Of a stretch of DNA of 64,000 nucleotides, positions 1,159 to 61,003 are shown piece after piece (position 1 is the stretch's first letter; each line of letters opens with the position of its first letter). The DNA comes from a virus: IMG/VR virus record IMGVR_UViG_3300045988_162372. One strand, 5' to 3'. The notes under the pieces are model-generated. The model saw only the letters and a list, made by a program, of their open reading frames with translations, was not told the origin of the DNA and ran no database searches. A program made the translations under genes and the position numbers.

Positions 1159-1264
1159 AATTTATATTTTTTTTATATAGTTTATGTATTATTATTTGAA
1201 CAATGCAAAAATGGCCAAAAACTTGGAATTATACAAATGCTATATGTTAATATTCTACAATGAG

Positions 1265-1902: not shown

Positions 1903-1903
1903 A

Positions 1904-2572: not shown

Positions 2573-3000
2573 GACATCACCTCCATTGTTGCTTCATTCT
2601 GATGCCCATTAGCAAAATACGGCTGTTGATACTCACGTCCTTGCTCATCAATGCACTCAAAACGGAAATATAAACTGTATAGACATTTTATATTGTAATC
2701 GCTAATTACTCTGCCTATATGTGACCGATGTCTTGTTCCATTACCACATTCATTTGCCATTTTATCATAATCAGGAATGGCTGCGGCAACTATATTGCAA
2801 AACACTCTCCATTGCTTTTTAACAATTTCTGCATTGCGCTGCACGTATTGGTTATATTCAAGTTCGACTTTACGACCTATTACATCGTTAATACTATTGC
2901 ATTTTGACAACAATACGTCATATTCCAATGCCTGTTCTTCGGAATCAAACCTTGTTCCGTCATTGCATTCGTAAATAGTTATCTTCTTCATAATCCTCAC
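2560..3000 (-). CDS. hypothetical protein
   Basis: 146 aa ORF with a -7 box at 3165-3172 upstream. No motif recognised. Confidence 0.55.
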   Translation of the reverse strand: MRIMKKITIYECNDGTRFDSEEQALEYDVLLSKCNSINDVIGRKVELEYNQYVQRNAEIVKKQWRVFCNIVAAAIPDYDKMANECGNGTRHRSHIGRVISDYNIKCLYSLYFRFECIDEQGREYQQPYFANGHQNEATMEVMSCRR

Positions 3001-3164: not shown

Positions 3165-3172
3165 CAAAGATA
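3165..3172 (-). promoter_or_regulatory. Bacteroidetes -7 promoter box (TAnnTTTG on the - strand)
   Basis: + strand caaagata = TATCTTTG on the - strand, about 165 nt upstream of the 3000 start. Confidence 0.5.
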
Positions 3173-3287
3173 CAAATGTTTTCGTAGAAAACAAAATTAT
3201 TTTGCAAAAATCATAATATTTTATACGTTTTTTAATTTTACCAGATATTTTTTAATATAAAAGATAAAAAAAAAACAACTCACGGAA

Positions 3288-3677
3288 ATGCTGCTTACGA
3301 CAAAGGTACATATTGACAATGGTTTTAAGGACTTCCAAGTCCTTAAAATGATGTGCTATCATTCTGCAAGAATGTACAATGTCGGTTTGTATTCCGTCCG
3401 TCAGCATTTTTTCAATACGGAAGAATACCTGTCGTATTACAACAATTATCATCTCTGCAAGACAAACGAGAATTACTCTCTTCTCATTACGGATACTGGC
3501 CAACAAATTCTCAGAATTGTGGACAGGGATATGCACTCGTTCTTCGGTCTATTGAAACTGAAGAAACTGGGCAAATATTCCAACCCGATACACTTGCCGA
3601 AGTACAAGGACGAGGAAGGTCTTATGACCTGTTACATAATCTCTATGAAAAATATTATAACTAAAAGTTGCGATTAA
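3288..3677 (+). pseudogene. tnpB: truncated TnpB (IS200/IS605 OrfB-type) N-terminal fragment
   Basis: 129 aa. ...TGQQILRIVDRDMHSFFGLLKLKK...PIHLPKYKDEEG resembles the TnpB N-terminal region (FF...PKYK). The ORF stops after about 125 aa with no RuvC or Zn-finger part. Confidence 0.5.
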
Positions 3678-9026: not shown

Positions 9027-10232
9027 TCAATCTTTTATCTCAAAAACGTCTTTAGCAGTAACTTGTTTCGGCTTTTCTTTCCTGTTTATCTTTTCATATT
9101 TCTCATCAATAATTATCAAATCTTTCCATTTGTCAAGTAGACCTGAATTATTAAGAAAGAATTTCCTTATGTTGTAAGTGTTATAATGCTTCATATAACC
9201 AATATACGAGTTAACGGTCATTATAAGTTTATCCAATCTCTTTTCATCAGGATTATTGAATAAGTTTCTCAATTTATAATACAATGAACCTTTTGTTCTA
9301 TTCAAAACATATATTCTATTGGGTTTTATAACACTTCCAATAAACTGCACACCTTTTGTATAATGTTGAAAATATCTTTTATTTGGATGAATTGTCAATT
9401 TCAATTCCCTTTGGGCAAATTCAATTATCTTGTCCACCGAACTTTTCAATTTCTCTTTATCCGAGGATACTATCATAAAGTCATCAACATATCTGCCATA
9501 ATATTTAAAACCAAGCGTTTCCTTGATAAATCTATCGAGTTTTGTCAAAAAGAAATTGGCAAAAATCTGTGATGTCAAATTACCAATGGGTAGTCCTCTT
9601 TCATATCCTACATTAAACAAACTCTTATTGGAGTCTAATTTAGCCCATAACGACTGGTCACCTCTTTTCTCGCAATTTAATTCTGGATGATGTAGAACAA
9701 TCTGTTTGCATAATTCCCTAAGTTTCTCTTTCTTCCTATCATTTTCATAATATTCCACAATAAAATCGTCTATCATATCAGCCAATAACTGCTTATTAAT
9801 GCTCATAAAGAACGACTTTATATCCATCTTTAAAATCCAAGCATCCTTTGTATAATTCTCGGTACATTCCTTTATATACTCAAACATTGTTTTAACGCCA
9901 TACAATACACCCTTGCCCTCCATACACGAAAAGCTTTCTTTGATAAAATATTTTTCAAAATATGGCATTAATTCCTTGATGACAAGATGGTGTACAATTC
10001 TATCCCTGAAATCGGCAGCAAATACCTCACGATAAACTGGAAATGTAACAACAAATGCTATTGACTTACCAATTTCGTATGTTCCATCGTTAATATCATC
10101 ACATAAACGTGTGACTTTTTCTATATAGTCAATTTCGAACTCTCGTGCATTACTTGTATTTCTTTTGTTCTTAATACAATCTTCATACGCCTCGAAAACC
10201 TCACCGTAGCTAAAACAATATGCTTTTGCCAT
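9027..10232 (-). CDS. DGR reverse transcriptase
   Basis: 401 aa with YVDDF catalytic motif and the DGR-typical LPIGNLTSQ motif. It lies immediately downstream of a TR. Confidence 0.9.
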   Translation of the reverse strand: MAKAYCFSYGEVFEAYEDCIKNKRNTSNAREFEIDYIEKVTRLCDDINDGTYEIGKSIAFVVTFPVYREVFAADFRDRIVHHLVIKELMPYFEKYFIKESFSCMEGKGVLYGVKTMFEYIKECTENYTKDAWILKMDIKSFFMSINKQLLADMIDDFIVEYYENDRKKEKLRELCKQIVLHHPELNCEKRGDQSLWAKLDSNKSLFNVGYERGLPIGNLTSQIFANFFLTKLDRFIKETLGFKYYGRYVDDFMIVSSDKEKLKSSVDKIIEFAQRELKLTIHPNKRYFQHYTKGVQFIGSVIKPNRIYVLNRTKGSLYYKLRNLFNNPDEKRLDKLIMTVNSYIGYMKHYNTYNIRKFFLNNSGLLDKWKDLIIIDEKYEKINRKEKPKQVTAKDVFEIKD

Positions 10233-49282: not shown

Positions 49283-49290
49283 CAAAGATA
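49283..49290 (-). promoter_or_regulatory. Bacteroidetes -7 promoter box
   Basis: caaagata, 30 nt upstream of ATG 49253. Confidence 0.55.
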
Positions 49291-49334
49291 CGGTAATGTT
49301 CTTATATCTCCAAATAAATAATAATTAATTTTTG

Positions 49335-49697: not shown

Positions 49698-49816
49698 GTC
49701 ATTAAAATTTTTATCTAATTTATTATTCTATTAAAAATAAAACAAACGCAAAACAAAATAATTGCTCTGCGTTCAAAATCCTTTTTGACATATTGGAATA
49801 CTTAACTTATTTTAAG

Positions 49817-49887
49817 TTGCGGCACCATGAATCGAACATGGATCTGAAGATTATGAGTCTCCCGCTTTACCTTTGAGCTATACCGCA
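49817..49887 (-). tRNA. tRNA-Met or Ile2 (anticodon CAT), elongator type
   Basis: Acceptor TGCGGTA/TGCCGCA, anticodon arm GGAGA-CTCATAA-TCTTC, T arm CCATG-TTCGATT-CATGG. No encoded CCA. Confidence 0.8.
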
Positions 49888-49935
49888 ATTTCTATTATAA
49901 ATAGTACATATCTCTAAAAATACTTTTTTTCTAAG

Positions 49936-50007
49936 CGGTCTATAAGAGAGTCGAACTCTTGTCTTAGCATCGACAGTGCCACATCCTAACCGTTGAACGA
50001 ATAGACC
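49936..50007 (-). tRNA. tRNA-Asp (GTC)
   Basis: Acceptor GGTCTAT/ATAGACC, anticodon loop CTGTCGA, T loop TTCGACT. Confidence 0.8.
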
Positions 50008-50009
50008 AA

Positions 50010-50152
50010 ATTAAGCAGAGAAAGGGTTAAGTTGGTGTCTTATAAACGATTATTACTGGAATCGAACCAGTTACCCTATATACCCAAAATATATGCTCTA
50101 ACCTAATGAGCTAAACAATCCGAAGTAACCAACTTTGTCACTACTGCTTTAT
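50010..50152 (-). ncRNA. clamp module A: bipartite leader/trailer stem enclosing tRNA-Pro
   Basis: Leader ATAAAGCAG-TAGTGA-CAAAGTTGGT-TACTTCG. Trailer ACCAACTT-AACCCTTTCT-CTGCTTAAT. The two helices (8 bp, and 8 of 9 bp) flank the conserved loop. Confidence 0.6.
50047..50120 (-). tRNA. tRNA-Pro (TGG)
   Basis: Acceptor GATTGTT/AATAATC (one G-U pair), D arm GCTC-ATTAGGTTA-GAGC, anticodon arm TATAT-TTTGGGT-ATATA, T arm ACTGG-TTCGATT-CCAGT. Confidence 0.8.
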
Positions 50153-50162
50153 ATTTTAAATA

Positions 50163-50283
50163 AACTCAAAGAAAATTAAGACAGCGTTTTGATTTCGACA
50201 GGAATCGAACCTGTAACACAAACCTTGGAAGGGTTTTTATCTACCATTGATATACGAAGTATCTGTCTTCTCACTATTGAGTT
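50163..50283 (-). ncRNA. clamp module D: bipartite stem enclosing a tRNA-Gly-like body
   Basis: Leader AACTCAA-TAGTGA-GAAGACAG-ATACTTCG. Trailer CTGTCTT-AATTTTCT-TTGAGTT. Both helices are 7 bp. Confidence 0.6.
50190..50261 (-). tRNA. tRNA-Gly (TCC)-like with a defective acceptor stem
   Basis: D arm TATC-AATGGTA-GATA, anticodon arm AAACC-CTTCCAA-GGTTT, T arm ACAGG-TTCGATT-CCTGT, 3' acceptor CGAAATC. The only 5' partner is the clamp's conserved TACTTCG (5 of 7 pairs). Confidence 0.5.
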
Positions 50284-50306
50284 ATCTCTTTATTTCTTTC
50301 ACATTG

Positions 50307-50314
50307 CAAATGTA
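50307..50314 (-). promoter_or_regulatory. Bacteroidetes -7 promoter box for the distal tRNA cluster
   Basis: caaatgta (TACATTTG on the - strand), 24 nt upstream of module D. Confidence 0.5.
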
Positions 50315-50458
50315 CAACTTTATTTCGAAACTACCAAATATTTTCCAAACTTTTTACAAAAAAAAATCAATCATCTTAATTTATATGATTGAATTTCATA
50401 AGTAACCATTAATGTTAATTCTTAACTTCCCCACCCTCAAACAGAAATTGGAGCATCT

Positions 50459-50551
50459 TTAATTCCAATTTCCGTACTTCATTATTCTTTCACCGTTAAT
50501 GACCATTCCCTCATATATGAGGTTAAGGACTTTCTTAATTACCTTCTTCAT
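50459..50551 (-). CDS. possible micro-ORF (30 aa)
   Basis: Hand-translated MKKVIKKVLNLIYEGMVINGERIMKYGNWN. Its ATG overlaps the stop of the upstream micro-ORF (TCATGA). Confidence 0.2.
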   Translation of the reverse strand: MKKVIKKVLNLIYEGMVINGERIMKYGNWN

Positions 50552-50691
50552 GACTTCTTCGAAATTGAATAATTATCATAAATGTAAGGCGGTATTGTAC
50601 AACTAGGATATATGCAGTTATTAGCATATTGTTTAAAATACCATTTCACGGCTCTTTTTGTTAAATTAAACATCTTTTTCATAACTTTCAT
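50548..50691 (-). CDS. possible small ORF (47 aa)
   Basis: Hand-translated MKVMKKMFNLTKRAVKWYFKQYANNCIYPSCTIPPYIYDNYSISKKS. Confidence 0.25.
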   Translation of the reverse strand: MKVMKKMFNLTKRAVKWYFKQYANNCIYPSCTIPPYIYDNYSISKKS

Positions 50692-50841
50692 CTTTTAAGA
50701 ATTAAATTAAATTATTATTAAAGTCTACATTTTCATTCATTACACCAATAAATATATGTCATTCATAAAAAATATGTTAAATAACATATTTTATTGATAC
50801 AAATCAATAAGACTAAAATAATGAATTATTATTTATTCTTG

Positions 50842-50928
50842 CGGAGAGCGGTGTACTCGAAACACAGACAAGCATTATGTCCGAAGCAACTTAGCAGGTT
50901 GTCCCTACACCTCGTAGGTTCACTCTCC
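50842..50928 (-). tRNA. tRNA-Ser (GCT), long variable arm
   Basis: Acceptor GGAGAGT/GCTCTCC, anticodon loop CTGCTAA, long variable region, T loop TTCGAGT. Some stems are imperfect. Confidence 0.65.
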
Positions 50929-51066
50929 AAAAATGACAGTTCCTATCCACACCCTAACTGTCAAAGGATAACTGGGATACGCTCAGTACAAGGTTTTCGA
51001 CTTGTTATCAACAAGACCTCAGTGTTACGTTGCTCCGTCTAACTAGTATTGTAGAGCTTCATGTTG

Positions 51067-51154
51067 CGGAGGCGGAAGGATTCGAACCTTCGGTACGCTC
51101 ATCACGCACGACGGTTTTCAAGACCGTTGCATTAAACCACTCTGCCACACCTCC
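51067..51154 (-). tRNA. tRNA-Ser (TGA), long variable arm
   Basis: Acceptor GGAGGTG/CGCCTCC, anticodon arm ACGGT-CTTGAAA-ACCGT, T arm GAAGG-TTCGAAT-CCTTC. Confidence 0.85.
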
Positions 51155-51370
51155 AATTTTACGCTGCCAATAGATAAACAGCTTACAGATATTCATCTAG
51201 TTTTTCTTCTACGTTTCAAAAACTTGATACTCGCCTGTTTCCTCACATTAACTAAAAACTACGTTCAGAGTAACGTTACCTCTCTATATCCGACAATTAA
51301 GGGTGTCAGAACATACCATACATTTTTGTAACTGTGCAATGTATAAAACATCCAGGTTCTCTATTTTATA

Positions 51371-51444
51371 GGGGGAAAGGTAGGAGTCAAACCTACTTCT
51401 GAAGAGCCACAATCTTCCATTCTAATCGTTGAACTACAATCCCC
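51371..51444 (-). tRNA. tRNA-His (GTG) with encoded G-1
   Basis: Anticodon arm GAAGA-TTGTGGC-TCTTC, T arm GTAGG-TTTGACT-CCTAC, an extra 5' G opposite C73. Two U-U mismatches in the acceptor stem. Confidence 0.6.
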
Positions 51445-51470
51445 ATATTAACTTTCTTTATCTCATTATG

Positions 51471-51541
51471 AGGCTCGTATTGGAGTTAAACCAATTTAAA
51501 CGGTTTTGCAGACCGCTGCATGTTCGACCTGCCCACGAGCC
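51471..51541 (-). tRNA. tRNA-Cys (GCA)
   Basis: Perfect acceptor GGCTCGT/ACGAGCC, U73, anticodon arm GCGGT-CTGCAAA-ACCGT, T arm ATTGG-TTTAACT-CCAAT. Atypical D arm. Confidence 0.7.
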
Positions 51542-51552
51542 ATTTTGTTAAG

Positions 51553-51625
51553 CATAGGCGGCACGACTCGAACATGCGACCAATGGTTTTGGAGACCATG
51601 ATTCTACCAACTGAATTACGCCTAT
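51553..51625 (-). tRNA. tRNA-Trp (CCA)
   Basis: Acceptor ATAGGCG/CGCCTAT, anticodon arm ATGGT-CTCCAAA-ACCAT, T arm GCATG-TTCGAGT-CGTGC. Confidence 0.8.
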
Positions 51626-51816
51626 GTATTAAATGTATTTTAAATAGAAATAACAGCTTGCTGCCCTTATTAATGCCTTACTCCGCAAGATAATAAAATT
51701 ATGTTTGAAATTAGGAAAGGAGGTAAATTGTATTCAAACATCTCGATTTTCACCTGATAGGGAGGATGACTTTAATTTGCAACCTATCAAAACATTATCG
51801 GCTTATTATTCTTCTG

Positions 51817-52290
51817 TTATTCTATTGTGATTGAAATCTTCTCACCTATTTCATGTACTTCTGTTAATTTTTCCATCAGCTCATGAAAGGTTGCTGTTGA
51901 ATTGACAACTTGCCCTTTGATTTTATTTTGACCAACAAGTAAACAGCCTAATGTATCTTCTGGCTTATTCCCAACATGGATTAAAACACCTTCATAACCA
52001 GGAACATTCATCAATCTTGGCAACTTTCCATCATAAGGTTTTGCCCAACTTCTATCTTTGAATTTAGGGCTTACAACATCCATATTGATTTCATAAGTTC
52101 CTGTCGGAATTGCTGTTTGACCATATACTTTCTTTTTCTTGATTTCCTCAATGGCCATATCGTTGGATAAACCTCTATCAACATCTTCAAGAGTGTCACA
52201 TTCGTAAACACCATCAACATACAATTTACCAATGGTATAAGTTTTTTGTTTTGCTATTCGTTTAAGTAATAATTTCATATTGCCATTCAT
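51817..52290 (-). CDS. DUF5675-like phage protein
   Basis: 157 aa. KRIAKQKTYTIGKLYVDGVYECDTLEDVDRGL and GCLLVG match my memory of this phage family. It is embedded in the tRNA island. Confidence 0.45.
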   Translation of the reverse strand: MNGNMKLLLKRIAKQKTYTIGKLYVDGVYECDTLEDVDRGLSNDMAIEEIKKKKVYGQTAIPTGTYEINMDVVSPKFKDRSWAKPYDGKLPRLMNVPGYEGVLIHVGNKPEDTLGCLLVGQNKIKGQVVNSTATFHELMEKLTEVHEIGEKISITIE

Positions 52291-52333
52291 TTTTTTTTTT
52301 GATTATTAATAAATAGCACTATGAAATCGAAAG

Positions 52334-52407
52334 TGTACCCACCGTGACTCGAACACGGGACTCTCACATTAAAAGTGTGATACTCTAACCAACTGAGTTA
52401 TGGATAC
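52334..52407 (-). tRNA. tRNA-Lys (TTT)
   Basis: Acceptor GTATCCA/TGGGTAC, D arm ACTC-AGTTGGTTA-GAGT, anticodon arm TCACA-CTTTTAA-TGTGA, T arm CCGTG-TTCGAGT-CACGG, A73. Confidence 0.85.
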
Positions 52408-52413
52408 TTATTG

Positions 52414-52487
52414 TGGAGCGTGTGAGACTCAAACTCACGACCTTCTGAGTGCAAATCAGATGCTCTCGTCAACTGAGCTAACGCCCC
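52414..52487 (-). tRNA. tRNA-Ala (TGC)
   Basis: Acceptor GGGGCGT/ACGCTCC with the G3-U70 identity pair. Anticodon loop TTTGCAC. Confidence 0.85.
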
Positions 52488-52496
52488 AAGGGGTTG

Positions 52497-52583
52497 TAGC
52501 CGAAGCGGGACTCGAACCCAGCACGGACATTACTGCCCAAGGGATTTTAAGTCCCTCATGTCTACCTATTCCATCATTCGGCC
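52497..52583 (-). tRNA. tRNA-Leu (TAA), long variable arm
   Basis: Acceptor GGCCGAA/TTCGGCT, anticodon arm AGGGA-CTTAAAA-TCCCT, T loop TTCGAGT, A73. Confidence 0.8.
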
Positions 52584-52593
52584 AAATTATATA

Positions 52594-52911
52594 TTAGAAA
52601 TACATATATTCAAATTCTTCATTCAATGGTATATTCTTACCTATTAAATCAGAACGTCTTATTTTTCTTCCTAATCCTTCTTCCATACATTTATAACAAA
52701 GATATAAATGTTCGTCTTCGATATTGCTCATTCTATATCCTGCTCTTACATGATGTTCTTCATATCTTTGTTCCGCTTCTTTTTCATATTTTTCAAGATT
52801 TAATTTTTTAACCACCTCTTTCCACCTGTTATCATTCAACATTGGAGATTGGCAATCACCATATAAAAATTTTCTGCCACAATTTTTGCATATACATACT
52901 GAACTTTTCAT
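52594..52911 (-). CDS. small zinc-ribbon protein
   Basis: Start moved to MKSSVCICKNCGRK, because the track start would overlap tRNA-Thr. Second Cys pair: CYKC. Confidence 0.5.
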   Translation of the reverse strand: MKSSVCICKNCGRKFLYGDCQSPMLNDNRWKEVVKKLNLEKYEKEAEQRYEEHHVRAGYRMSNIEDEHLYLCYKCMEEGLGRKIRRSDLIGKNIPLNEEFEYMYF

Positions 52912-52932
52912 ATTTTTTAATCTATTGATTTG

Positions 52933-53006
52933 AGCCTCTGGTCGGGTATGATCCGACAACCTCCTGATTACAAATCAGGTGCAACTACCAATTGTGCTAC
53001 AGAGGC
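52933..53006 (-). tRNA. tRNA-Thr (TGT)
   Basis: Perfect acceptor GCCTCTG/CAGAGGC, anticodon arm CCTGA-TTTGTAA-TCAGG. The T arm GTCGG-ATCATAC-CCGAC has an unusual loop. Confidence 0.7.
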
Positions 53007-53011
53007 AATTA

Positions 53012-53096
53012 AAGATAAAGAAAATCATCAAGAGTTTTGTAAAGTTCCATAATTCTCATATTTTTCACGAAGTATCTCTTGAATCACTATTATCTT
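53012..53096 (-). ncRNA. clamp module E: bipartite stem with only a 33-nt non-tRNA insert
   Basis: Leader AAGATAA-TAGTGA-TTCAAGAG-ATACTTCG. Trailer CTCTTGA-TGATTTTCT-TTATCTT. Both helices are 7 bp. Confidence 0.55.
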
Positions 53097-53106
53097 ATAT
53101 TTTTAA

Positions 53107-53230
53107 GGATAGAAGTTGGATTCCAACCAACAAACCGCACTTACCACGAGCTTCACGACCATGCTCTCGACTTTGCATTTCTGCTTTCAGATGAACTGTC
53201 ATTAGGTCGTTTTACCATCATTTTCTATCC
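53107..53230 (-). ncRNA. 124-nt tRNA-like RNA of unusual architecture
   Basis: Perfect 8-bp terminal stem GGATAGAA/TTCTATCC. A T-arm-like hairpin GTTGG-TTGGAAT-CCAAC abuts the 3' strand, with a D-arm-like GCTC-GTGGTAA-GTGC just upstream. A 6-bp helix ACGACC/GGTCGT encloses 44 nt. Confidence 0.45.
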
Positions 53231-53236
53231 TCTTTG

Positions 53237-53308
53237 TACTCGGTACGAGAATCGAACTCGTATTTTAAGAATGAAAATCTTACGTCCTAACCGTTAGACG
53301 AACCGAGC
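53237..53308 (-). tRNA. tRNA-Glu (TTC)
   Basis: Acceptor GCTCGGT/ACCGAGT, anticodon arm TAAGA-TTTTCAT-TCTTA, T arm ACGAG-TTCGATT-CTCGT. Confidence 0.8.
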
Positions 53309-53445
53309 ATAAAAATCAACCTTTTTACATTGATATATTAGGTTAAATGCGCACTTCCTATATTACCAAGAGGTAAACGTTTGATTAGGTTACTCGCAAA
53401 CCCGTAGAGAACATCCAATCCTCGCTGTCTCTCTTTTCCGCAGCG

Positions 53446-53530
53446 TTGGGGTGGTGAGATTCGAACTCACTCAGCCTTTACGACAACAGATTTACAGTCT
53501 GTCCCAGCTCTCCCACTCTGGCGCACCCCA
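53446..53530 (-). tRNA. tRNA-Tyr (GTA), long variable arm
   Basis: Perfect acceptor TGGGGTG/CACCCCA, anticodon arm ACAGA-CTGTAAA-TCTGT, T arm GTGAG-TTCGAAT-CTCAC. Confidence 0.85.
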
Positions 53531-53540
53531 ATTTATTTAG

Positions 53541-53614
53541 TAGGCATACTTGGACTTGAACCAAGGATCTCTACATTATCAGTGTAACGATTTAACCAAC
53601 TAATCTATATGCCT
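53541..53614 (-). tRNA. tRNA-Ile (GAT)
   Basis: Acceptor AGGCATA/TATGCCT, anticodon loop CTGATAA, T arm CTTGG-TTCAAGT-CCAAG. Confidence 0.8.
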
Positions 53615-53997
53615 ATAAATTTTATTAATATTGTAAGCAAGGCACAGGTTTGTCTACAAGCCTAACCACTAATACCTACACCCTTATGGTCTTACCACTT
53701 GGACTTGTTTTCTGCATGGAATAATCCACCGTTTTTAGTTTCAACTTACAATATTAATAAGCATAGCCTTTGTTATTCTTTTTACAGTGTCTATATCGTA
53801 TTATTGGTAACTCGTTCGACCATGACTAACCAACTATATTTTTCTAACCAAATAATACGCTTAATTATAAAATGATAACATTAACGTAGTATATTTACCA
53901 CTCTATAATACGACTTAACTGTCAATTATAAATTATACATATATACACACCATAACTACGTCTTTCAGTGATGAAGTTTCACTGCCCTATTGTGTTG
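53615..53997 (-). ncRNA. ORF-free structured spacer with three stem-closed domains
   Basis: Closing helices: ttaatattgtaag/cttacaatattaa (53626-53758, 13 bp), cgtattatt-gg/ccaaataatacg (53797-53859, about 12 bp), acgtagt/actacgt (53884-53961, 7 bp). Confidence 0.35.
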
Positions 53998-54072
53998 TGG
54001 ACATTCCTTGAATCGAACAAGGTTAAATGGATTTTCAGTCCATCGCAATATCACCAGACCTGCCCAATGTCC
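53998..54072 (-). tRNA. tRNA-Phe (GAA)
   Basis: Perfect acceptor GGACATT/AATGTCC, anticodon arm ATGGA-CTGAAAA-TCCAT, T arm CCTTG-TTCGATT-CAAGG. Confidence 0.85.
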
Positions 54073-54083
54073 TTAAAAAATAA

Positions 54084-54230
54084 ATGTAAAGAGAACAATT
54101 AAAGTTTGTGTTAAAATTAAAAGTTCTGCAAACTTTCGTGTATACCATTTCACCACATATCCGAAAATTGAGGATATGGTCGGAATCGAACCGACAAAAT
54201 CGAAGTAACAAACTTTTCACTACTTTACAT
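54084..54230 (-). ncRNA. clamp module B enclosing a circularly permuted tRNA-Cys(GCA)-like body
   Basis: - strand order: leader ATGTAAAG-TAGTGA-AAAGTTTGT-TACTTCG; ATTTT; T arm GTCGG-TTCGATT-CCGAC; 3' acceptor CATATCC; 9-nt loop TCAATTTTC; 5' acceptor GGATATG; D arm GTGA-AATGGTAT-ACAC; anticodon arm AAAGT-TTGCAGA-ACTTT; trailer ACAAACTTT-AATTGTTCT-CTTTACAT. Confidence 0.6.
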
Positions 54231-54232
54231 AG

Positions 54233-54304
54233 AGCAGGTGAACAGAATCGAACTGTCATCCTCTGCTTGGAAGGCAGACGCACTAACCGTTGTGCTACAC
54301 CTGC
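54233..54304 (-). tRNA. tRNA-Gly (TCC)
   Basis: Perfect acceptor GCAGGTG/CACCTGC, anticodon arm TCTGC-CTTCCAA-GCAGA, T arm GACAG-TTCGATT-CTGTT. Confidence 0.85.
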
Positions 54305-54311
54305 AAAAAAT

Positions 54312-54454
54312 AACAATAGAGAAACTTCAAAACAGTTTTTTGTATTATCAATTCTTAAAAGGAATTTGCTCTAACCGACTGAGCTAATCTGAATATCAGA
54401 TGATGGACTCGAACCACCGCTTAACGAAGTAACTGTTTTATCACTACTATTGTT
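54312..54454 (-). ncRNA. clamp module C enclosing a circularly permuted tRNA-Lys(TTT)-like body
   Basis: - strand order: leader AACAATAG-TAGTGA-TAAAACAGT-TACTTCG; TTAAGC; T arm GGTGG-TTCGAGT-CCATC; acceptor hairpin ATCTGA-TAT-TCAGAT; TA; D arm GCTC-AGTCGGTTA-GAGC; anticodon arm AATTC-CTTTTAA-GAATT; trailer AACTGTTTT-GAAGTTTCT-CTATTGTT. Confidence 0.6.
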
Positions 54455-54457
54455 TTG

Positions 54458-54528
54458 CGGGAGTAGAAGGAATCGAACCTTCACCTAATGATTAACAGTC
54501 ATTTGCTCGACCTTCGAGCTATACTCCC
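54458..54528 (-). tRNA. tRNA-Asn (GTT)
   Basis: Perfect acceptor GGGAGTA/TACTCCC, anticodon arm AATGA-CTGTTAA-TCATT, T arm GAAGG-TTCGATT-CCTTC. Confidence 0.85.
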
Positions 54529-55212
54529 AATTGTGTTTCCTCTATTATCACAACAGTAGAAACACTTAAATAGTTACTACCATAAAAAATTCATAAAAAT
54601 ATCAATTATGTGTTGTTACACCAAAATCAATATAATGCTGTAAATCCCTTTTCAGTTCAACTGGTCACTTTCATAACCAATAGCTCTACAACATTTGAAC
54701 CGTACTCCTGATTATACAAATTTATTTTAGTTATAAGTGCAAGGTTTTTATATCATCAGTTTGTGTACAAGTTTCTTTTAACATTTATCGGACTAAGTTG
54801 CGTTTCTTCCTATCACCAGAAGGCGTTAATAGATCCCGTGCGCAGATACTCATTATATGATAGCTACTCTCAAGCCTACATTTAATTGATAATTTTTATT
54901 ATATTCCCCTAACAGCACTCCTGTCAATCACTCCATCCTAAAGGTTAGAGCTTGAGCAAAGGGGATTAACCCTTTGACATGGCATATTGACAAAGGCTCT
55001 TACATGGTCTTGGAAACACCAATTCCACTTGCGTTCATAATAGACTGTTGCCCTCTTCAATATTATTAGAAGGTTCAAGATTTCTGGTTTGGGAATTAAG
55101 CTACTGTAAACCTTTGTTCGCTTTTCGTTATATTAAGTTGTTCCAATATGTCAAAGAACTCATCTTGCTTTTATCTTTGTCAAAATCTCAACTGCAACCC
55201 TTGTTTTGATTT
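54529..55212 (-). ncRNA. about 680-nt ORF-free, promoter-driven region (candidate large structured ncRNA)
   Basis: No ORF of 60 aa or more on either strand. It looks less AT-rich than ordinary spacers here. A -7 box sits at 55220-55227, and there are many local helices (for example CAAAGGG-TTAATC-CCCTTTG and GTGTTTC...GAAACAC). Confidence 0.4.
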
Positions 55213-55219
55213 GACATTG

Positions 55220-55227
55220 CAAAGATA
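55220..55227 (-). promoter_or_regulatory. Bacteroidetes -7 promoter box
   Basis: caaagata at the head of the 680-nt noncoding region and the tRNA array. Confidence 0.5.
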
Positions 55228-55288
55228 CTGCAAGTTTTTGAAATCTCCAAATTTTTATTGTTAAAAATTGTAGAATTTTCAAATTTTG

Positions 55289-55363
55289 TTGGGATTGAAG
55301 GAGTCGAACCTTCCTTTTCAGATCCAAATTCTGACGTAATCAAGACCGATATACGAAACCCCA
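55289..55363 (-). tRNA. tRNA-Gln (TTG)
   Basis: Acceptor TGGGGTT/AATCCCA, anticodon arm TCAGA-ATTTGGA-TCTGA, T arm GAAGG-TTCGACT-CCTTC. Long D loop. Confidence 0.7.
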
Positions 55364-55393
55364 ATCTTTTTCAAAGAACTCTTCTTTATTTTG

Positions 55394-55484
55394 TCAGGAT
55401 GGAGGGATTCGAACCCCCGTTTGACTGTTACATCTACTCTCCTGCTCCCAAAGCAGGCATGTTGACCTACTACACCACATCCTG
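55394..55484 (-). tRNA. 91-nt tRNA with Pro anticodon (TGG) and a 22-nt unpaired variable-region insert
   Basis: Perfect acceptor CAGGATG/CATCCTG, D arm GTGT-AGTAGGTCA-ACAT, anticodon arm CCTGC-TTTGGGA-GCAGG, insert AGAGTAGATGTAACAGTCAAAC, T arm GGGGG-TTCGAAT-CCCTC, A73. Confidence 0.55.
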
Positions 55485-55505
55485 TTTATTTTCTTTTTCA
55501 CTCTG

Positions 55506-55513
55506 CAAAGATA
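55506..55513 (-). promoter_or_regulatory. Bacteroidetes -7 promoter box
   Basis: caaagata, 22 nt upstream of the 91-nt tRNA. Confidence 0.55.
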
Positions 55514-55544
55514 CAAACAATTTTTGAAACTACCAAATATTTTC

Positions 55545-56048
55545 TCAAAAATCTTTTGTTCTTTTTCTTATTTCACAAACATCATATCCAAGCAACCCTT
55601 CATTATAACTTTCCACGTAATATACTATCCATTTATCGTAGTAATCCAATCTTGGAAAGAACGTATCAGCATCATTAACCCTTTTCTTTATTCTTGTAAG
55701 ATATATCTTATCCACAATATCCTTTTCAAGTGCTTCCTTGTAAATACTTCCACCACCTATAATATATATGTCTTTTTCATATTCCTTTGCTTTCTTCATT
55801 GCTTCTTCAAGACTGTGAACCCATATCAGATTTCCTTCGTCTTTATTGTCACTTCTACTGACAACAATGTTTATTCTATCTTTCAATGGTTTTCCAATAC
55901 TTTCATATGTTTTTCTTCCCATAATGACTACATTACTAGTCGTTAATCTTTTAAAATTTTGCATATCTTCTTTCAAATGAAAGAGAAGTTTGTTATCTTT
56001 TCCTATTGCATCATTCTCGCTTACCGCTACTATAATAATTGTTTCCAT
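55545..56048 (-). CDS. folA: dihydrofolate reductase
   Basis: 167 aa with IVAVSENDAIGKDNKL, VIMGRKTYESIG and IIGGGSIY motifs. Confidence 0.85.
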   Translation of the reverse strand: METIIIVAVSENDAIGKDNKLLFHLKEDMQNFKRLTTSNVVIMGRKTYESIGKPLKDRINIVVSRSDNKDEGNLIWVHSLEEAMKKAKEYEKDIYIIGGGSIYKEALEKDIVDKIYLTRIKKRVNDADTFFPRLDYYDKWIVYYVESYNEGLLGYDVCEIRKRTKDF

Positions 56049-56157
56049 AATCCTTTTTAAATTTTAATTACCATTACTAAATAAAGAAAGCTGTAAATTA
56101 AACTTTTTCTTTGTTTACTTACAGCTTCTGGGAATATATGTTGATTGAATTGAGGAC

Positions 56158-56322
56158 TTAATTTGTCATTTTTCGTTTTATTCCTTTCGCTGCTTTCAAC
56201 TTTTTATTTTCTGACCATGTGGGTTGTAATGGTTGATTTGCATTAAAACAAGAAATTTCATAATGATAATTTCCATTACCATTATAACTAAAACATCCGT
56301 ATGTAAATTGTTTACTGTTCAT
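56158..56322 (-). CDS. small hypothetical protein (54 aa)
   Basis: Hand-translated MNSKQFTYGCFSYNGNGNYHYEISCFNANQPLQPTWSENKKLKAAKGIKRKMTN. Confidence 0.25.
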   Translation of the reverse strand: MNSKQFTYGCFSYNGNGNYHYEISCFNANQPLQPTWSENKKLKAAKGIKRKMTN

Positions 56323-56863
56323 CTGTTTTTTCTTGTTTCTTCGTCTATTTCAAAATATAAATATATCAAACTTTTCAAAAGTTATCAATATTTTTAAAAA
56401 AATCATAATAAAAATAAAAAATATTGGGTATAGCAGCCATGTACAAACCATATAGTCAAGAAATATACTAACTAAACTACCTCATGGATTTCATCTTCCT
56501 TTTATGCTTTCATTCATTAAGCAATAGAAGAATTTAACCTTTCAGTTTTAAGGTTTCAGCCTTAATGGGGAAAATAAACGATATCAAATCTACACTCTCC
56601 CAAAAACTTTAACCTTTCAGGTTTGATATTTAATCTTTAAGCCTTGAGCTTTTCTGTTCAATCTGTCCAGAAAAATAGTCTTAACTATAATTCTCAAAAG
56701 TCTTAAAATATTATATTATCTAACCATTCAAAATTATTAACCCAAATCTTGAAAAGGGATTCCTTGTTTAAGGGTTTTCGCTATAACCAATATTTTTTTG
56801 TTCAATTGAAGTCATCCTATAAAGGATGACCTCTCTTATATATTAAACACTTCTCACAGTCTT

Positions 56864-57487
56864 TTACACCTCAACAGTTACAGTTGCATTTGCCTCAGAT
56901 AAAACAGCGTCTACCTCTGTCATAAAGCCGTCAATCTCGTTTCTCAGAGTTTCCAACTTCTGTTTTAGATTAATCGGGTCTACTGCCTTGATTGCGTTTG
57001 TTTCGTTGTAACTCTTTGTCAGAGCCTCTACTGTGCTTGCGTCCGCCTTTGAACTATCTTTACCAGTTGCACTAAGGATAAGGTTGTTCAACTTTTCCTC
57101 GTTAGTTCTACTTTCATTTTCAAACTTTGCGAGATACTCCTGATATAGACGATTCAAACGCTTGTATTCAAGCTCCTTATAAGAAATTACAGTCTTGTAG
57201 TCGATAGCCTCGGCAATTGTCATTGCCATTCCATTAACTATTACTGTATGTGTTGCATTCGCCAAAATCAAAGCCCTCTTCAAGTCATATCTACGTTGAA
57301 TAAGTGCTTCAAGAGACTCTACATCTGCCTTTGCATTAGATGTAAATTCATCTTCTGATACAGGTTTCAAGAACTTATCACCTTTCTTAATGCCAATCAC
57401 ATCAAGTTTGGCAACACCATTATTGATTCTCTTATCAAGAGTTTTCAACTCACTCAACACTCTGTGCAATGTCATCTTCTGTGTCAT
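56864..57487 (-). CDS. coiled-coil protein, possibly DIP1984/septicolysin-like
   Basis: 207 aa with a helical pattern (LHRVLSELKTLDKRI ... ILANATHTV ... MTIAEAIDYK). Weak recollection of the family. Confidence 0.3.
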   Translation of the reverse strand: MTQKMTLHRVLSELKTLDKRINNGVAKLDVIGIKKGDKFLKPVSEDEFTSNAKADVESLEALIQRRYDLKRALILANATHTVIVNGMAMTIAEAIDYKTVISYKELEYKRLNRLYQEYLAKFENESRTNEEKLNNLILSATGKDSSKADASTVEALTKSYNETNAIKAVDPINLKQKLETLRNEIDGFMTEVDAVLSEANATVTVEV

Positions 57488-57532
57488 AACAAAAAACTTT
57501 AAATGTTAAACCTAATATTTATTTTCTTTTTG

Positions 57533-57606
57533 TACCCCAAGTTGGATTCAAACCAACGGCCCACATCTTAGAAGGATGTTGCTCTATTCAACTGAGCTAT
57601 TGGGGC
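57533..57606 (-). tRNA. tRNA-Arg (TCT)
   Basis: Acceptor GCCCCAA/TTGGGGT, D arm GCTC-AGTTGAATA-GAGC, anticodon arm ACATC-CTTCTAA-GATGT, T arm GTTGG-TTTGAAT-CCAAC. Confidence 0.85.
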
Positions 57607-57626: not shown

Positions 57627-57634
57627 CAAAGATA
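57627..57634 (-). promoter_or_regulatory. Bacteroidetes -7 promoter box
   Basis: caaagata, 21 nt upstream of tRNA-Arg. Confidence 0.55.
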
Positions 57635-59134
57635 CTACTTATTTTTGATACAGCCAAATTTTTCATCATAAAAATTTGTTAAAAAGATATTTTTTCTTTC
57701 TTTCCACTTGAAATTCAAGTATTTTTCCAATTCTTTGGTTGTAAAAGTTGAAAAACCTCCGTTCTTGTATCTTCCAAGAGAATGTATATAGTTTACAAAC
57801 TCGTTACTGTTTATAGTTTCTTCAACGAACTGCCTTACCTCACTACTTCTAAAATCATCCTTGGAAAGGATATAAAAACCGCTATATATCCCTGTTTCGC
57901 TACAACAATAATGTAATTTAATGTCTTCCCTTGTTTTTATCAAGTTGTTTATTGCATATTTGTTCTTGTTTACATCATTAATTGCCTGACTTCTTCCATA
58001 AAGATACCAATTTTCCTTTGCTGTATCAACTTTTAACTCGTATGCTTTTCGCAAGAGTATGTTTTGAATAGGGATACTCAATTCTTCAAATTTCAAAGGT
58101 TTTCCTTCCTTGTCATAAGGGTATATTATGCTTTGAAGTATATTTTTTGATGCCTTTGTACAAAATATCATGTTGGGGTCTCCCAAGAAACCTGCCATTT
58201 CAGACATTTTACCAATAAACAATTTGTCGTTAAGTGTAGCAAAGCCGTTTTTTACAGTAAACACTTTATCTGTTGCTTCTATATCATCAATATGCCTCAA
58301 TATACTTAATATTTCATTACATTTGAAGTAAAAATTTGATTTATCGCCAATTTTATATTCTTTCAATAGTGCATTATTAACTTCTTTACATATTCCCTCT
58401 TCATTAAAAGTATATACCTTTGTAGTTTCATTATGAAACCAATTACCAAGTTCTGTTATCATTGTAAAAGTAGTGGCTTCATTGAATACCTTTTTATGCT
58501 GCATATCGGTAATTGATATAATACCATCTTTCTCTAAGAGCCATTCCCTGAATTGTTGTGCATAAAGACTGGTAGTCCATGAGCTTGGTGTAATGTATAT
58601 GAGTTTTCCTGTATGTTTCAGCATTTTAATCCCAATCCAAAAGAACATCACATAAGAATCAAATGTACCTTTCGCATCTCCACATATCTGCTTGTATTTC
58701 AATCGTTTTTCTTGTGATAAATCATGAATTTTGCAATACGGTGGATTACCTACAACAAAATCCATTAATTTATACTTATTTAAACAATCAACAGTATCTG
58801 CATTACATATATCCCATTCAACACCTGTAATACTATACTTTGCTGCAACACTATTAAGTCTTAAAACTGTCTTTCTACATAGATTACTATCAATCTCAAT
58901 ACCATGAATATATTTTTCAAGACCTTTCTTTAATTCGTTTTTTGAAATATTCCTATCCAATATACCATGTTTGATATACCTATCAACAATTTCTGCAAGA
59001 AAAGCACCATCTCCACAACTATTATCAATAATGTGTTTATCATGTATATCTGCTGACGGTCTATACCCTATTTTGTCAAGCATCATATTGACTACCCAAT
59101 CTGGCGTAAATATTTGTTCATTGTGCATAACCAA
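57635..59134 (-). CDS. N6-adenine DNA methyltransferase (Eco57I-like gamma class)
   Basis: 499 aa. The N-terminal FTPDWVVNMM, DNSCGDGAF (AdoMet motif) and VGNPPY catalytic motif. Confidence 0.75.
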   Translation of the reverse strand: MVMHNEQIFTPDWVVNMMLDKIGYRPSADIHDKHIIDNSCGDGAFLAEIVDRYIKHGILDRNISKNELKKGLEKYIHGIEIDSNLCRKTVLRLNSVAAKYSITGVEWDICNADTVDCLNKYKLMDFVVGNPPYCKIHDLSQEKRLKYKQICGDAKGTFDSYVMFFWIGIKMLKHTGKLIYITPSSWTTSLYAQQFREWLLEKDGIISITDMQHKKVFNEATTFTMITELGNWFHNETTKVYTFNEEGICKEVNNALLKEYKIGDKSNFYFKCNEILSILRHIDDIEATDKVFTVKNGFATLNDKLFIGKMSEMAGFLGDPNMIFCTKASKNILQSIIYPYDKEGKPLKFEELSIPIQNILLRKAYELKVDTAKENWYLYGRSQAINDVNKNKYAINNLIKTREDIKLHYCCSETGIYSGFYILSKDDFRSSEVRQFVEETINSNEFVNYIHSLGRYKNGGFSTFTTKELEKYLNFKWKERKNIFLTNFYDEKFGCIKNK

Positions 59135-59241: not shown

Positions 59242-60909
59242 TTAAATTTCAATCGCTTCTATTTCTTTCAAGATTGCACCAAAGCCCTTAGTATTGGACT
59301 TGATTACATCAAAGATGTTTGCACTCCATCCTGCAATATTCAAAACACGTTCTGGTTTGTAGAACACATTATTTCCCCTGGTGTTGTGTATATCTACTAC
59401 AATGATATTGCAAAGAGGATTAATCTTTCTGAATTGTTTTATCAAATCTTGGAATGTTGCACTTCTTTCAGTTCCACTTGTCCCGTACCAAGACGTAGAA
59501 CCGCTTGAGCCAATTTGACAATCTGAAAAGACAATGATGTTGTCAATTTTCTTCTTTTCTCTTACAGCTTGTCTAAAGAAGTCATAAATACCTTGCTCAG
59601 TTCCTCCACCACAGTTTGCACCTTTATCAAACGACCTCTTGTTGAAATCAAGCAATCTTTGGCTTCTATCAATTTTTACTGGGATAAGTCTGTCACCAAA
59701 CAATCCAATATATACATTCTTCTGACGGTATGCCATCATACTTCCAAACAAATTGCCAATCATAGCAGTAGTTGTTTTGGAAAACGCTGACACTCTTGAA
59801 CTTCCACCACCATCCCCGCGTACCGATCCCGAATGATCAATCAATATTGCAGTATTTCCTTCCAATTCTGGAATATTCTGACAAGAAATCTGCAATGCAT
59901 CTTCAATTGCATCCAGTACCTTTTCCTTCAATTTAGCAAACTCCGTAGCGGTTATTGTCTGATTGTTGTAATCTTCCTCAAATGCAATAGAGGTATCACT
60001 CTTTTTATCAGAAAAACTCATCTTTTCGATTTCCTCGTAAGCTGTTGCGAAACGGAAAGGAAGCAATCTTGAATTCAAGACAGCGGTTTCGTTTGTCAAC
60101 TGTGCGCAAGCATCATCTACGCTCTTAGGCGCATAAAGAATAATGTTTCTCAGATTTCTCAAGAGATTCATTATAGGCATACCCTTAACATTAGACAATA
60201 CGTTTTCGATTGCCTCTTTCTTGGCAGCTTCTTTCTCTTGCACACTCTTCCCTTGTGTCTTTTGTCCTGCCTTTGTCATTTCCTTTTCCAACACCTTTGA
60301 GGCATACAGTCCTGCAAGTGATTCACCATTGACAAGGTTGTGATAAGCCTGTTGGTTTCTCTGTGTCCCCTTTGGATGGAAAAGATTAACCAAATCAAGC
60401 ATTTTAACCTGACGACTGTTCATCTTGTACTTATCAATCTGATAAACATCCAAACGCTCCAATGCAGTCTTAAAACCTTTCTTGATAGCATTAGGTATTT
60501 TTCTGATTTTCTTCAAATCCATCTTGTTCTGAACAGCATAGGCTGACAGAATTTCAGACATATCATCTGGACGAACAACAATCTTATTGTAGAATCTCTT
60601 CGACCATTCTGTACCAGATGCTCTCTTTGCAATTGTTGCTGCAATCAAATGTGATACTGAACGTAGATTTCCTTCATTACGCACGTATAGTGCCAACTTT
60701 GCGGCGAACAAAGGATCCACCTCGTTCAACTTGTTCACAATTCTGTTTACAACTTCCTTTTCTGTCTCGTAATAATGATCACCAGACAAGAATGTTGTCA
60801 TACAAGTTGATACCAACTCTTCTTTTGCTGAAAGTTGATATGCGTTCTCACCCATTGCATTTACTACTGTAGGCTTTACGCCTTCTGCTTTTGCGTTGTA
60901 CTTACTCAT
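59242..60909 (-). CDS. rsr: Ro60 ortholog (TROVE domain + vWA domain)
   Basis: 555 aa. The N-terminal NAMGENAYQLSAKEEL...FYE...DPLFAAKLALYVRNEGNLR is TROVE-like. The C-terminal vWA has the MIDAS motif LIDHSGSVRG. Confidence 0.7.
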   Translation of the reverse strand: MSKYNAKAEGVKPTVVNAMGENAYQLSAKEELVSTCMTTFLSGDHYYETEKEVVNRIVNKLNEVDPLFAAKLALYVRNEGNLRSVSHLIAATIAKRASGTEWSKRFYNKIVVRPDDMSEILSAYAVQNKMDLKKIRKIPNAIKKGFKTALERLDVYQIDKYKMNSRQVKMLDLVNLFHPKGTQRNQQAYHNLVNGESLAGLYASKVLEKEMTKAGQKTQGKSVQEKEAAKKEAIENVLSNVKGMPIMNLLRNLRNIILYAPKSVDDACAQLTNETAVLNSRLLPFRFATAYEEIEKMSFSDKKSDTSIAFEEDYNNQTITATEFAKLKEKVLDAIEDALQISCQNIPELEGNTAILIDHSGSVRGDGGGSSRVSAFSKTTTAMIGNLFGSMMAYRQKNVYIGLFGDRLIPVKIDRSQRLLDFNKRSFDKGANCGGGTEQGIYDFFRQAVREKKKIDNIIVFSDCQIGSSGSTSWYGTSGTERSATFQDLIKQFRKINPLCNIIVVDIHNTRGNNVFYKPERVLNIAGWSANIFDVIKSNTKGFGAILKEIEAIEI

Positions 60910-60961: not shown

Positions 60962-60969
60962 CAAAAATA
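60962..60969 (-). promoter_or_regulatory. Bacteroidetes -7 promoter box
   Basis: caaaaata, 53 nt upstream of the rsr start. Confidence 0.5.
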
Positions 60970-61003
60970 CGACTAATTTTTGATATTACCAAATATCTAA
61001 TAG

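Follow-up and report, generated by a model that had tools for sequence, protein, structure and literature searches.

On the minus strand of a 64,000-nucleotide (nt) stretch of viral DNA (IMG/VR record IMGVR_UViG_3300045988_162372; hereafter the window), a phage tRNA sub-operon has at its 5′ end a non-coding part, positions 54529-55212, that is clearly under selection for RNA base pairing on this promoter-sense strand, judging from compensatory changes among related phages. One component of this stretch, M2, is shown by comparative data to be an autonomous RNA family of ~100-130 nt, whose fold combines a covariation-supported H-type pseudoknot with a multi-helix junction bearing invariant nucleotides. 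Unrelated phages also carry M2, frequently within or next to tRNA clusters and without an accompanying protein gene. Two further modules, M3 and M4, were found only in this phage clade and in one relative from the rumen. We put at about even the chances that the stretch gives rise to stable RNAs that would be matured from the tRNA precursor and act in trans.

Non-coding character and selection on base pairing

A preliminary description of this DNA had proposed a large structured non-coding RNA at this site, with GOLLD and ROOL as candidates. The non-coding nature, the selection on base pairs, and the tRNA setting stood up to analysis, whereas the GOLLD/ROOL identity and the notion of one large RNA did not. 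As that description stated, no open reading frame (ORF) of 60 amino acids or more lies within 54529-55212, but the longest minus-strand peptide, which it put at about 15 amino acids, has 46 (54938-55078, TTG start); the longest plus-strand ORF has 53 (55048-55209). The 46-amino-acid ORF belongs to an insert specific to the strain, and relatives do not have it. The lower AT content remarked on there is real (GC up to 0.40 at 54800-55100 versus 0.23-0.30 in many other spacers). All four helices that it named exist, but two of them (CAAAGGG/CCCTTTG and AGAGC/GCTCT) sit inside the 121-nt strain-specific insert and so do not belong to a conserved core; the GTTCAA/TTGAAC helix is part of M4 and recurs in most relatives. 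Related phages, in which the same description had suggested looking for conservation and covariation, revealed conserved blocks and compensatory changes in M2, M3, and M4. The features of the stretch are listed below in transcript order (R1 is the covariance model of M2 and R2 the model of M3; other loci are cited by L numbers).

55137-55161, minus strand: leader motif M1, GAGUUCUUUGACAUAUUGGAACAAC, nearly invariant in all relatives
54896-55125, minus strand: pseudoknotted RNA motif M2 (R1, 86.7 bits, E 1.7e-15)
55123-55120 with 55101-55098, minus strand: helix H1 of M2
55114-55108 (AAGGUUU) with 55083-55077 (AAAUCUU), minus strand: pseudoknot of M2
55094-55091 with 54908-54905, minus strand: helix H2 of M2
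55086-55084 (CAG) with 54915-54913 (CUG), minus strand: helix H3 of M2
Within M2: H4, a variable hairpin, and H5, an arm whose H6 tip is replaced by the insert in the window
54922-55042, minus strand: 121-nt insert in place of the H6 tip hairpin of M2, with four hairpins including CAAAGGG-UUAAUC-CCCUUUG
54771-54885, minus strand: M3, two hairpin domains (R2, 134.6 bits; RNAalifold)
54600-54701, minus strand: M4, with helices a and b, a variable hairpin, conserved CUGAAAAGGGAUUU, and a GUGU-AACA-ACAC hairpin
54700-54695 (GUUCAA) with UUGAAC, minus strand: helix a of M4, which interleaves with helix b
54694-54687 (AUGUUGUA) with 54642-54635 (UACAGCAU), minus strand: helix b of M4
54533-54565, minus strand: hairpin GUGUUUC-N19-GAAACAC, 4 nt upstream of tRNA-Asn, read from the sequence

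The nested helices of M2 were first predicted with RNAalifold on 8 sequences, among which 96% of the cells were paired and 13 of 26 pairs had changed on both sides, as against 3.0 +/- 1.5 double-changed pairs in shuffles and 2-4 in slid versions. A second test used an R1-based alignment of 19 distinct rows, to which H1 was added from outside the search model, together with a 7-bp pseudoknot that pairs the H1 loop (AAGGUUU) with the junction following H3 (AAACCUU in the alignment). In this test 95.2% of the cells were paired, a percentage inflated for the nested helices by their having been aligned to the model, and 18 of 32 pairs were double-changed; 75 cells were double-changed, whereas shuffles gave 18.4 +/- 4.4 and slid controls 6-11. 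The covariation of H1 and the pseudoknot is independent of this bias, since neither is in the search model. The pseudoknot changes from A-U to G-C in five distinct rows, and at another of its positions the M2 of the window has G-U. The inner pair of H1 occurs as CG, UG, AU, GC, and UA, and H2 as UCCC/GGGA, CUUU/AAAG, GAAUCC/GGAUUC, CAUUAC/GUAGUG, GCUAAC/GUUAGC, and AAUCUUC/GGGAGAUU. Several long unpaired runs show little or no variation (GAAMAARGGUUU, CAAACCAGAAACC, ACAGNCCA, and AGGAGUGCUGUUAG).

Complete copies of M3, known from six lineages, do not differ in length, and 8 of the 28 pairs show compensatory changes (RNAalifold), exceeding the controls. In all three modules the G-U pairs are compatible with the minus strand alone. 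Several invariant G-U pairs of M3 would be C-A on the plus strand, which identifies the minus strand as the RNA strand; those at columns 52-95 and 69-77 become mismatches if read on the plus strand. Helix b of M4 is kept at 8-9 bp through four sequence versions in five lineages (AUGUUGUA/UACAGCAU, AUGUUAUA/UAUAACAU, AUG(A)CCAUA/UAUGGCAU, and AUUAUGUAA/UUACAUAAU), and the module carries an invariant CUGAAAAGG.

These changes bear on the explanation that the stretch has no function and is only a spacer left by decayed tRNA genes or recombination, or that it codes for small proteins. The many indels between relatives, one strain-variable piece, and a modest minimum free energy folding z-score (-2.86 on the minus strand and -1.99 on the plus strand, from 20 shuffles only) are in keeping with it; folding energy by itself is weak evidence, and the real support for structure comes from covariation. 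Compensatory changes above both controls in three modules, the conservation of M2 across phages whose surrounding DNA, as far as examined, has no other similarity to the window, the lack of a conserved ORF, and the failure of the tRNA and YrlA models to hit anything within 54529-55287 make a spacer or coding role hardly credible.

Distribution and neighborhood of M2

Copies of M2 were located by exact-pattern scans of IMG/VR contigs with the invariant strings and then scored with R1. This yielded 21 full-scoring copies (87-135 bits) from ~12 unrelated phage lineages, full scores being recorded for the window, L033-L038, L076, L077, L079, L083, L086, and L094-L105. The window has no second copy, and L002 has only a weak match (10033-10133, 26.6 bits) that is possibly a decayed one.

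In the window, M2 lies 162 nt past tRNA-Gln and 367 nt before tRNA-Asn, and throughout the window clade a tRNA gene is found within ~400 nt. A same-strand tRNA follows M2 directly in L098, after 65 nt in L102, after 75 nt in L100, and after 374 nt in L104. By eye, T-arm/acceptor-like minihelices that were not called as tRNAs abut M2 in L097, L099/L101, and L103; the only support comes from L099, in which a weak match involves the 3′ end of the tmRNA model. When the proteins encoded around M2 were compared across lineages, no shared family was found, and the absence of a common neighbor gene disfavors both a dedicated cis-regulator and a fixed protein partner encoded nearby.

A blastn search of INPHARED with window positions 54400-55400 returned tRNA-Asn matches only; a clean M2 copy used later as the query uncovered shorter variants of ~98 nt in cultured phages, scoring 23-45 bits with R1. 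These occur in six Vibrio phages of 191-196 kb (including Va1 and pv27), in phage KZY1, and, in a more divergent form, in Flavobacterium phages of the immuto group. The variants retain the 5′ region, the pseudoknot strands, H2, H3, and CUGUUAGG, and those of the Vibrio phages and KZY1 have a conserved AAUACCCAUUAAGAUCG instead of the H5/H6 arm. The pv27 variant lies within an annotated tRNA array, and the immuto variant is directly 5′ of tRNA-Cys. In GenBank, coding sequences (CDS) annotated as "hypothetical protein" overlie the M2-like RNA in pv27 (L107 2999-3211) and immuto_2-6A (L108 2984-3085); these calls are probably spurious. Exact M2 sequence strings do not occur in the searchable full-text literature, a scope that does not extend to the 10,006 candidate phage RNAs catalogued in PMC10690425.

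Modular anatomy of the Gln-Asn spacer

Spacers between tRNA-Gln and tRNA-Asn were taken from phages whose DHFR is 65-100% identical to that of the window. All of these relatives possess the spacer, at 401-760 nt, and in all of them conserved blocks alternate with hairpins of variable length, with many indels. In more distant relatives (DHFR 59-60%) only the promoter and the leader motif precede tRNA-Asn; in two of them, L088 and L091, M1 follows the promoter shortly 5′ of tRNA-Asn. An M1-like sequence, GAGUUCUUUGA, is also present 5′ of tRNA-Gln in the window. A scan of Joint Genome Institute (JGI) metagenomes with DHFR added one close relative, L043, in which similarity stops before tRNA-Pro; the remaining matches were unrelated marine DHFR loci.

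The order M2-M3-M4 is preserved in the window clade, but the modules can be lost separately. L002 keeps M3 and M4 and has lost M2 from the site, while L076 has M2 and lacks most of M3 and all of M4. R2 matched only the window clade, a rumen contig (L095), and the remnant in L076. The hairpin at 54533-54565 is kept in L034, L036, L079, and L083, survives as its 3′ arm alone in L076, and is replaced by a different hairpin in L002. L076, the relative with the reduced M3 and no M4, also carries a full-length TnpB (975-2582, plus strand; OrfB_IS605 with a Cas12f1-like TNB domain) between a methylase and a 207-amino-acid gene.

The rumen contig L095 (CACYXI010000001.1, 286.6 kb, from metagenome-assembled genome RUG12352) is binned as an uncultured Bacteroidales bacterium, although it probably derives from a jumbo phage and not from a bacterium. 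On its minus strand, an ORF-free region of ~1040 nt (1960-2999) contains M1, an expanded M2-like part, M3, and M4; further GC-richer sequence is present, and the region ends in a tRNA-like T-arm. L077/L078 are 99.3% identical to window positions 54201-55600 across the spacer, insert included, whereas their DHFR protein is only 86% identical, a contrast that points to what would be recent recombination between related phages.

The 121-nt insert in M2 is strain-variable. It is absent from nine of ten identical-DHFR loci (99%-identical strains), which have 37 nt where the window has 54923-55070; among the ten, only L037, which is 100% identical to the window, agrees with it there. The insert is present in L037, L077, and L078. 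By comparison with L076, which has the same H4 allele, a 13-nt H6 tip has been exchanged for ~120 nt in the window, and H5 and all invariant M2 strings are intact despite the change. Since L098 has yet another, longer H6, the tip of M2 appears to tolerate change. Where insert copies differ (A.A to U.G, and U.G to C-G), the changes preserve the pairing of one hairpin, and do so only in the M2 sense.

A sequence 95% identical to the insert occurs at 4932-5052 of L001, a 216-kb phage contig, where it is intergenic between two opposite-strand ORFs. Exact-pattern scans of IMG/VR found no copy beyond those known, and an 18-mer scan for the hairpin CAAAGGGTTAATCCCCTTT gave 30 loci, all of them chance matches except L001. 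An origin of the insert from IS200/IS605 or TnpB elements was considered and rejected, as it has neither terminal inverted repeats nor a target duplication; likewise, an ORF at 3288-3677 that looked TnpB-like by eye matches nothing in Pfam and is not similar to the L076 TnpB.

Comparison with known RNA families

M2, M3, and M4 match no Rfam 15 family. At the gathering score, Rfam 15 detected only tRNAs in window positions 54300-55500, and at E <= 10 nothing credible appeared inside the stretch (chance-level DUF2693, E 0.72; HEARO, E 9.9). ROOL, GOLLD, raiA, group I intron, RNase P, and tmRNA, the models against which the preliminary description would have had it screened, do not match the stretch at E <= 10; for ROOL and GOLLD there was no hit on 54300-55500 at the gathering score or E <= 10, nor at E <= 1 on L034, L083, L002, L086, L094, and L095, six related or M2-bearing loci whose corresponding sequences likewise matched no family credibly. 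A minimal M2 copy (L094 3965-4100) searched at E <= 10 reached chance level only (Dicty_Class_I, E 3.7; MAT2A_E, E 3), and riboswitch and other small ribozyme models had no Rfam 15 match in the stretch or the minimal M2. Two resemblances were dropped: the M2 strings GAAMAAAGG and CAGAAACC suggested the P4 region of RNase P, but their strand order differs, there is no RNase P hit, and we make no such claim; the pairing of a hairpin loop into the junction past the next helix suggested a pistol-like ribozyme, but the Pistol model gave no hit.

The neighborhood of phage tRNA islands is also where ROOL and GOLLD, both studied by cryo-EM, are found; in GOLLD the 3′ region is conserved while the 5′ region varies, and tRNAs are sometimes included (PMC12286853). 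They share with our modules the position of phage or prophage non-coding RNAs beside tRNA islands, several pseudoknots, variable peripheral domains, and the lack of an associated protein gene; the stretch is inside a 21-tRNA array, and M2 is near tRNAs in L098, L100, L102, L104, pv27, and immuto. M2, M3, and M4 could accordingly be read as one ornate RNA of ~600-700 nt, a functional analogue of ROOL or GOLLD, two families marked by homo-oligomeric nanocage assembly, that is perhaps self-assembling and has variable peripheral domains of its own, and both the conserved module order in the window clade and the long ORF-free region of L095 are what it would predict. Set against this, neither Rfam model matches, the conserved unit M2 has only ~100-130 nt and stands on its own, without M3 or M4, in at least 10 unrelated lineages, L002 has M3 and M4 without M2, and few lineages carry all three modules. 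A single large RNA is not supported, as the modules come apart in evolution, and we regard the ornate-RNA explanation as improbable.

The theta ribozymes, which resemble those of hepatitis delta virus (HDV), lie beside tRNAs in gut phages and have been proposed to trim tRNA precursors (PMC10879173). By analogy, M2 might be a self-cleaving ribozyme with this role: it is likewise a small pseudoknotted RNA with invariant junction nucleotides, repeatedly located beside tRNAs or tRNA-like helices, and theta ribozymes provide a precedent among gut Caudoviricetes infecting Bacteroidota. The order of its helices, however, is unlike the nested double pseudoknot of HDV (P1, P1.1, P2, P3, and P4). The 5′ strand of H2 and the 3′ pseudoknot strand are just 7 nt (AAACCAG) apart, a distance at which a P3 hairpin cannot form. 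Moreover, M2 is not fixed at tRNA 3′ ends but lies on either side of tRNAs at distances of 0 to ~400 nt, no Rfam ribozyme model matches the minimal copy, and HDV-type models had no hit in it or in the stretch (E <= 10). Self-cleavage by M2 appears highly improbable to us.

A phage-encoded Ro60 with YrlA is already known, and the bacteria studied so far carry at least two Y RNAs near rsr, some of them missed by bioinformatic detection (PMC4201824). The window has both partners:

54339-54450, minus strand: YrlA-like Y RNA (Rfam RF02553, 33.3 bits, under the gathering score of 69)
59242-60909, minus strand: TROVE/Ro60 gene (Pfam E 2.5e-17), ~5 kb upstream of the YrlA-like RNA

The YrlA-like RNA, located between tRNA-Asn and tRNA-Gly, comprises a permuted tRNA-like T-arm, an acceptor-like stem, and a D-arm. 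It is conserved in relatives and in L086 lies directly upstream of the TROVE gene. M2, M3, and M4 resemble Y RNAs as small structured RNAs among tRNA-like elements near a same-strand Ro60 gene, with a genuine YrlA-like RNA 80 nt beyond the stretch, and they might be extra Y RNAs, that is, phage Ro60 ligands that work with the YrlA-like RNA two genes downstream. TROVE lies near M2 in the window clade, however, whereas none was found in the ~2-14 kb examined around each of 11 other full-scoring phage M2 loci; conversely, L088 and L091 keep TROVE and lack M2-M4. In contrast to YrlA, the modules have no T-arm/D-arm domain and no terminal stem around a large loop, and M2 lacks the long terminal stem formed by the 5′ and 3′ ends. 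The Y RNA motif GNCGAAN0-1G, which lies near the 5′ end (PMC4201824), is conserved in none of the three modules; the 5′ region of M2 reads AGCGAAC, AGUGAAC, AGGGAAA, GUUGAAC, or UGAGAAA (GCGAA, GUGAA, GGGAA, UUGAA, and GAGAA at its core), with only GAA invariant. In M3, GUCCGA changes to GUCGGA with a compensating change in its partner, so that the pairing is kept and not the sequence. For the same reason a Ro60-binding helix in M3, suggested by the strings GUCCGA and CUUGA, was rejected: GUCCG pairs with CGGGA and changes by compensation. Additional Y RNAs strike us as slightly less probable still than a ribozyme.

The tRNA array and its promoters

The window encodes 21 tRNA genes, all on the minus strand, spanning 49816-57606 (ARAGORN). 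The features that frame the stretch are as follows.

54457-54528, minus strand: tRNA-Asn(GUU), first tRNA of the transcription unit (ARAGORN; Rfam tRNA model, 69.1 bits)
55220-55251, minus strand: Bacteroidota-type promoter, with -33 TTTG at 55251-55248, a 20-nt spacer, and the -7 box TATCTTTG at 55227-55220
55288-55363, minus strand: tRNA-Gln, upstream bound of the ORF-free stretch
55393-55484, minus strand: tRNA-Pro(UGG), upstream of tRNA-Gln
55545-56048, minus strand: DHFR gene, upstream of tRNA-Gln, whose protein was used to find relatives

The -7 box at 55227-55220 was recognized in the preliminary description, and our analysis agrees that it belongs to a minus-strand promoter pointing into ~690 nt that run into tRNA-Asn. 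Contrary to what was supposed there, other tRNA genes of that strand (tRNA-Arg, tRNA-Pro, and tRNA-Gln) precede the stretch, so it does not open the array as a whole. What it opens is the largest sub-operon delimited by promoters, the next matching one downstream being at 50307-50338. Promoters in the window are of the Bacteroidota type: the pattern TTTG-N18-22-TAnnTTTG has 17 matches, all on the minus strand, compared with 4.1 +/- 2.0 expected from shuffles, and copies also stand 5′ of tRNA-Pro (55506-55537) and tRNA-Arg (57627-57658). About 80 nt around the promoter at 55220-55251 are kept in relatives and repeated elsewhere in the window, and many of the 17 sites carry a longer common sequence of ~60-80 nt (e.g., 3165-3195, 49283-49314, and 60962-60993).

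The source genome looks like that of a gut jumbo phage, given the size of the identical-DHFR contigs (71-368 kb), their human gut samples, and their gene content. Assemblies of this phage with coverage of about 194x and 405x are available. The contigs with human gut as the named sample are from ENA and Logan, and the same-strand genes upstream in identical-DHFR contigs include a Dam-type methylase, TROVE/Ro60, an Eco57I-type methylase, and tRNA-Arg. The tRNA-Pro(UGG) gene is 92 nt long with an extra arm of ~19 nt, unusual for tRNA-Pro; this form is shared with the closest relatives, and the versions in L002 and L076 have 74 nt. A second part of the array without a minus-strand ORF of at least 60 amino acids, with GC up to 0.47, lies at 50339-51065 (minus strand) between tRNA-Ser and the promoter at 50307-50338; within it, window positions 50840-50929 are matched by L002 10909-11001, a segment with a tRNA-Sec-like Rfam hit (37 bits).

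Proposed maturation and possible function

If the stretch is a source of stable trans-acting RNAs, the promoter at 55220-55251 would drive the whole unit, and the transcript would run in the order M1, M2, M3, M4, terminal hairpin, tRNA-Asn, YrlA-like Y RNA, and further tRNAs. Enzymes of tRNA processing would help to free the modules from this precursor, with RNase P making its cut where the downstream tRNA begins and 3′-end nucleases cutting past the upstream tRNA or tRNA-like helix. The ends of M2 fit with production by such machinery, because M2 recurrently abuts tRNAs or tRNA-like helices on either side. Once freed, the modules may persist as stable RNAs that act in trans during infection, with proteins or ligands contacted through the invariant junction nucleotides of M2. 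Phage T4 offers a parallel in its stable RNAs species 1 and 2 (rnaC and rnaD), which are small, belong to the T4 tRNA gene cluster, and are cut from the same precursors as tRNAs; they are not known to share the M2 fold.

Several observations weigh against maturation into trans-acting RNAs. No terminator or processing site within the stretch was shown, and the paired percentages of M2 are inflated for its nested helices, as stated above. L002 has no M2 at the site and L076 no M3 and M4, so no module is essential at this position. M2 has no tRNA within 2-10 kb in L094, L096, L099/L101, and L105, and tRNA-linked maturation therefore cannot be universal. Finally, a U-run directly after H2 in L094, L103, and L100 would also fit a role in termination.

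The same U-run is among the reasons to consider that the modules act in cis, as a structured leader that tunes transcription or processing into the downstream tRNAs; attenuation or antitermination, a riboswitch-like element, and an enhancer of folding or processing are all possible forms of such a leader. The stretch lies between a promoter, which it directly follows, and the largest run of tRNAs, M2 is mostly 5′ of same-strand tRNAs, the M2 of L096 ends 15 nt before an AAGGAGG-ATG, and the invariant unpaired nucleotides around the pseudoknot resemble an aptamer core. Yet the window clade has no U-run after H2, and M3 and M4 intervene between M2 and the first tRNA in the window. In L097 and L099, M2 comes after a tRNA-like helix rather than a promoter, and the downstream features are heterogeneous (tRNAs of differing identity, unrelated small ORFs, and a convergent gene). 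A cis-acting leader is, in our estimation, a real but rather unlikely explanation.

A bolder proposal, to which we would give a minor chance, is that M2 represents a new catalytic or ligand-binding RNA class of the tRNA islands of Bacteroidota and Vibrio phages, one that may serve the phage's own tRNA supply by processing, protecting, or regulating it and that may, together with M3 and M4, constitute a new ornate tRNA-island RNA. The tRNA islands of phages are already known for enigmatic RNAs, namely GOLLD, ROOL, and theta ribozymes. To these the present locus adds a compact family of ~100-130 nt that is absent from Rfam 15 and has a covariation-supported pseudoknot and long invariant junction sequences, and whose members span gut, rumen, and marine phages. 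The insert shows that one hairpin tip of M2 accepts a large cargo. The variants in cultured phages (Va1, pv27, and immuto), which are unannotated or lie under probably spurious CDS calls, make direct experiments possible, and the nearby phage Ro60/Y-RNA pair provides an entry to the management of RNA by jumbo phages during infection.

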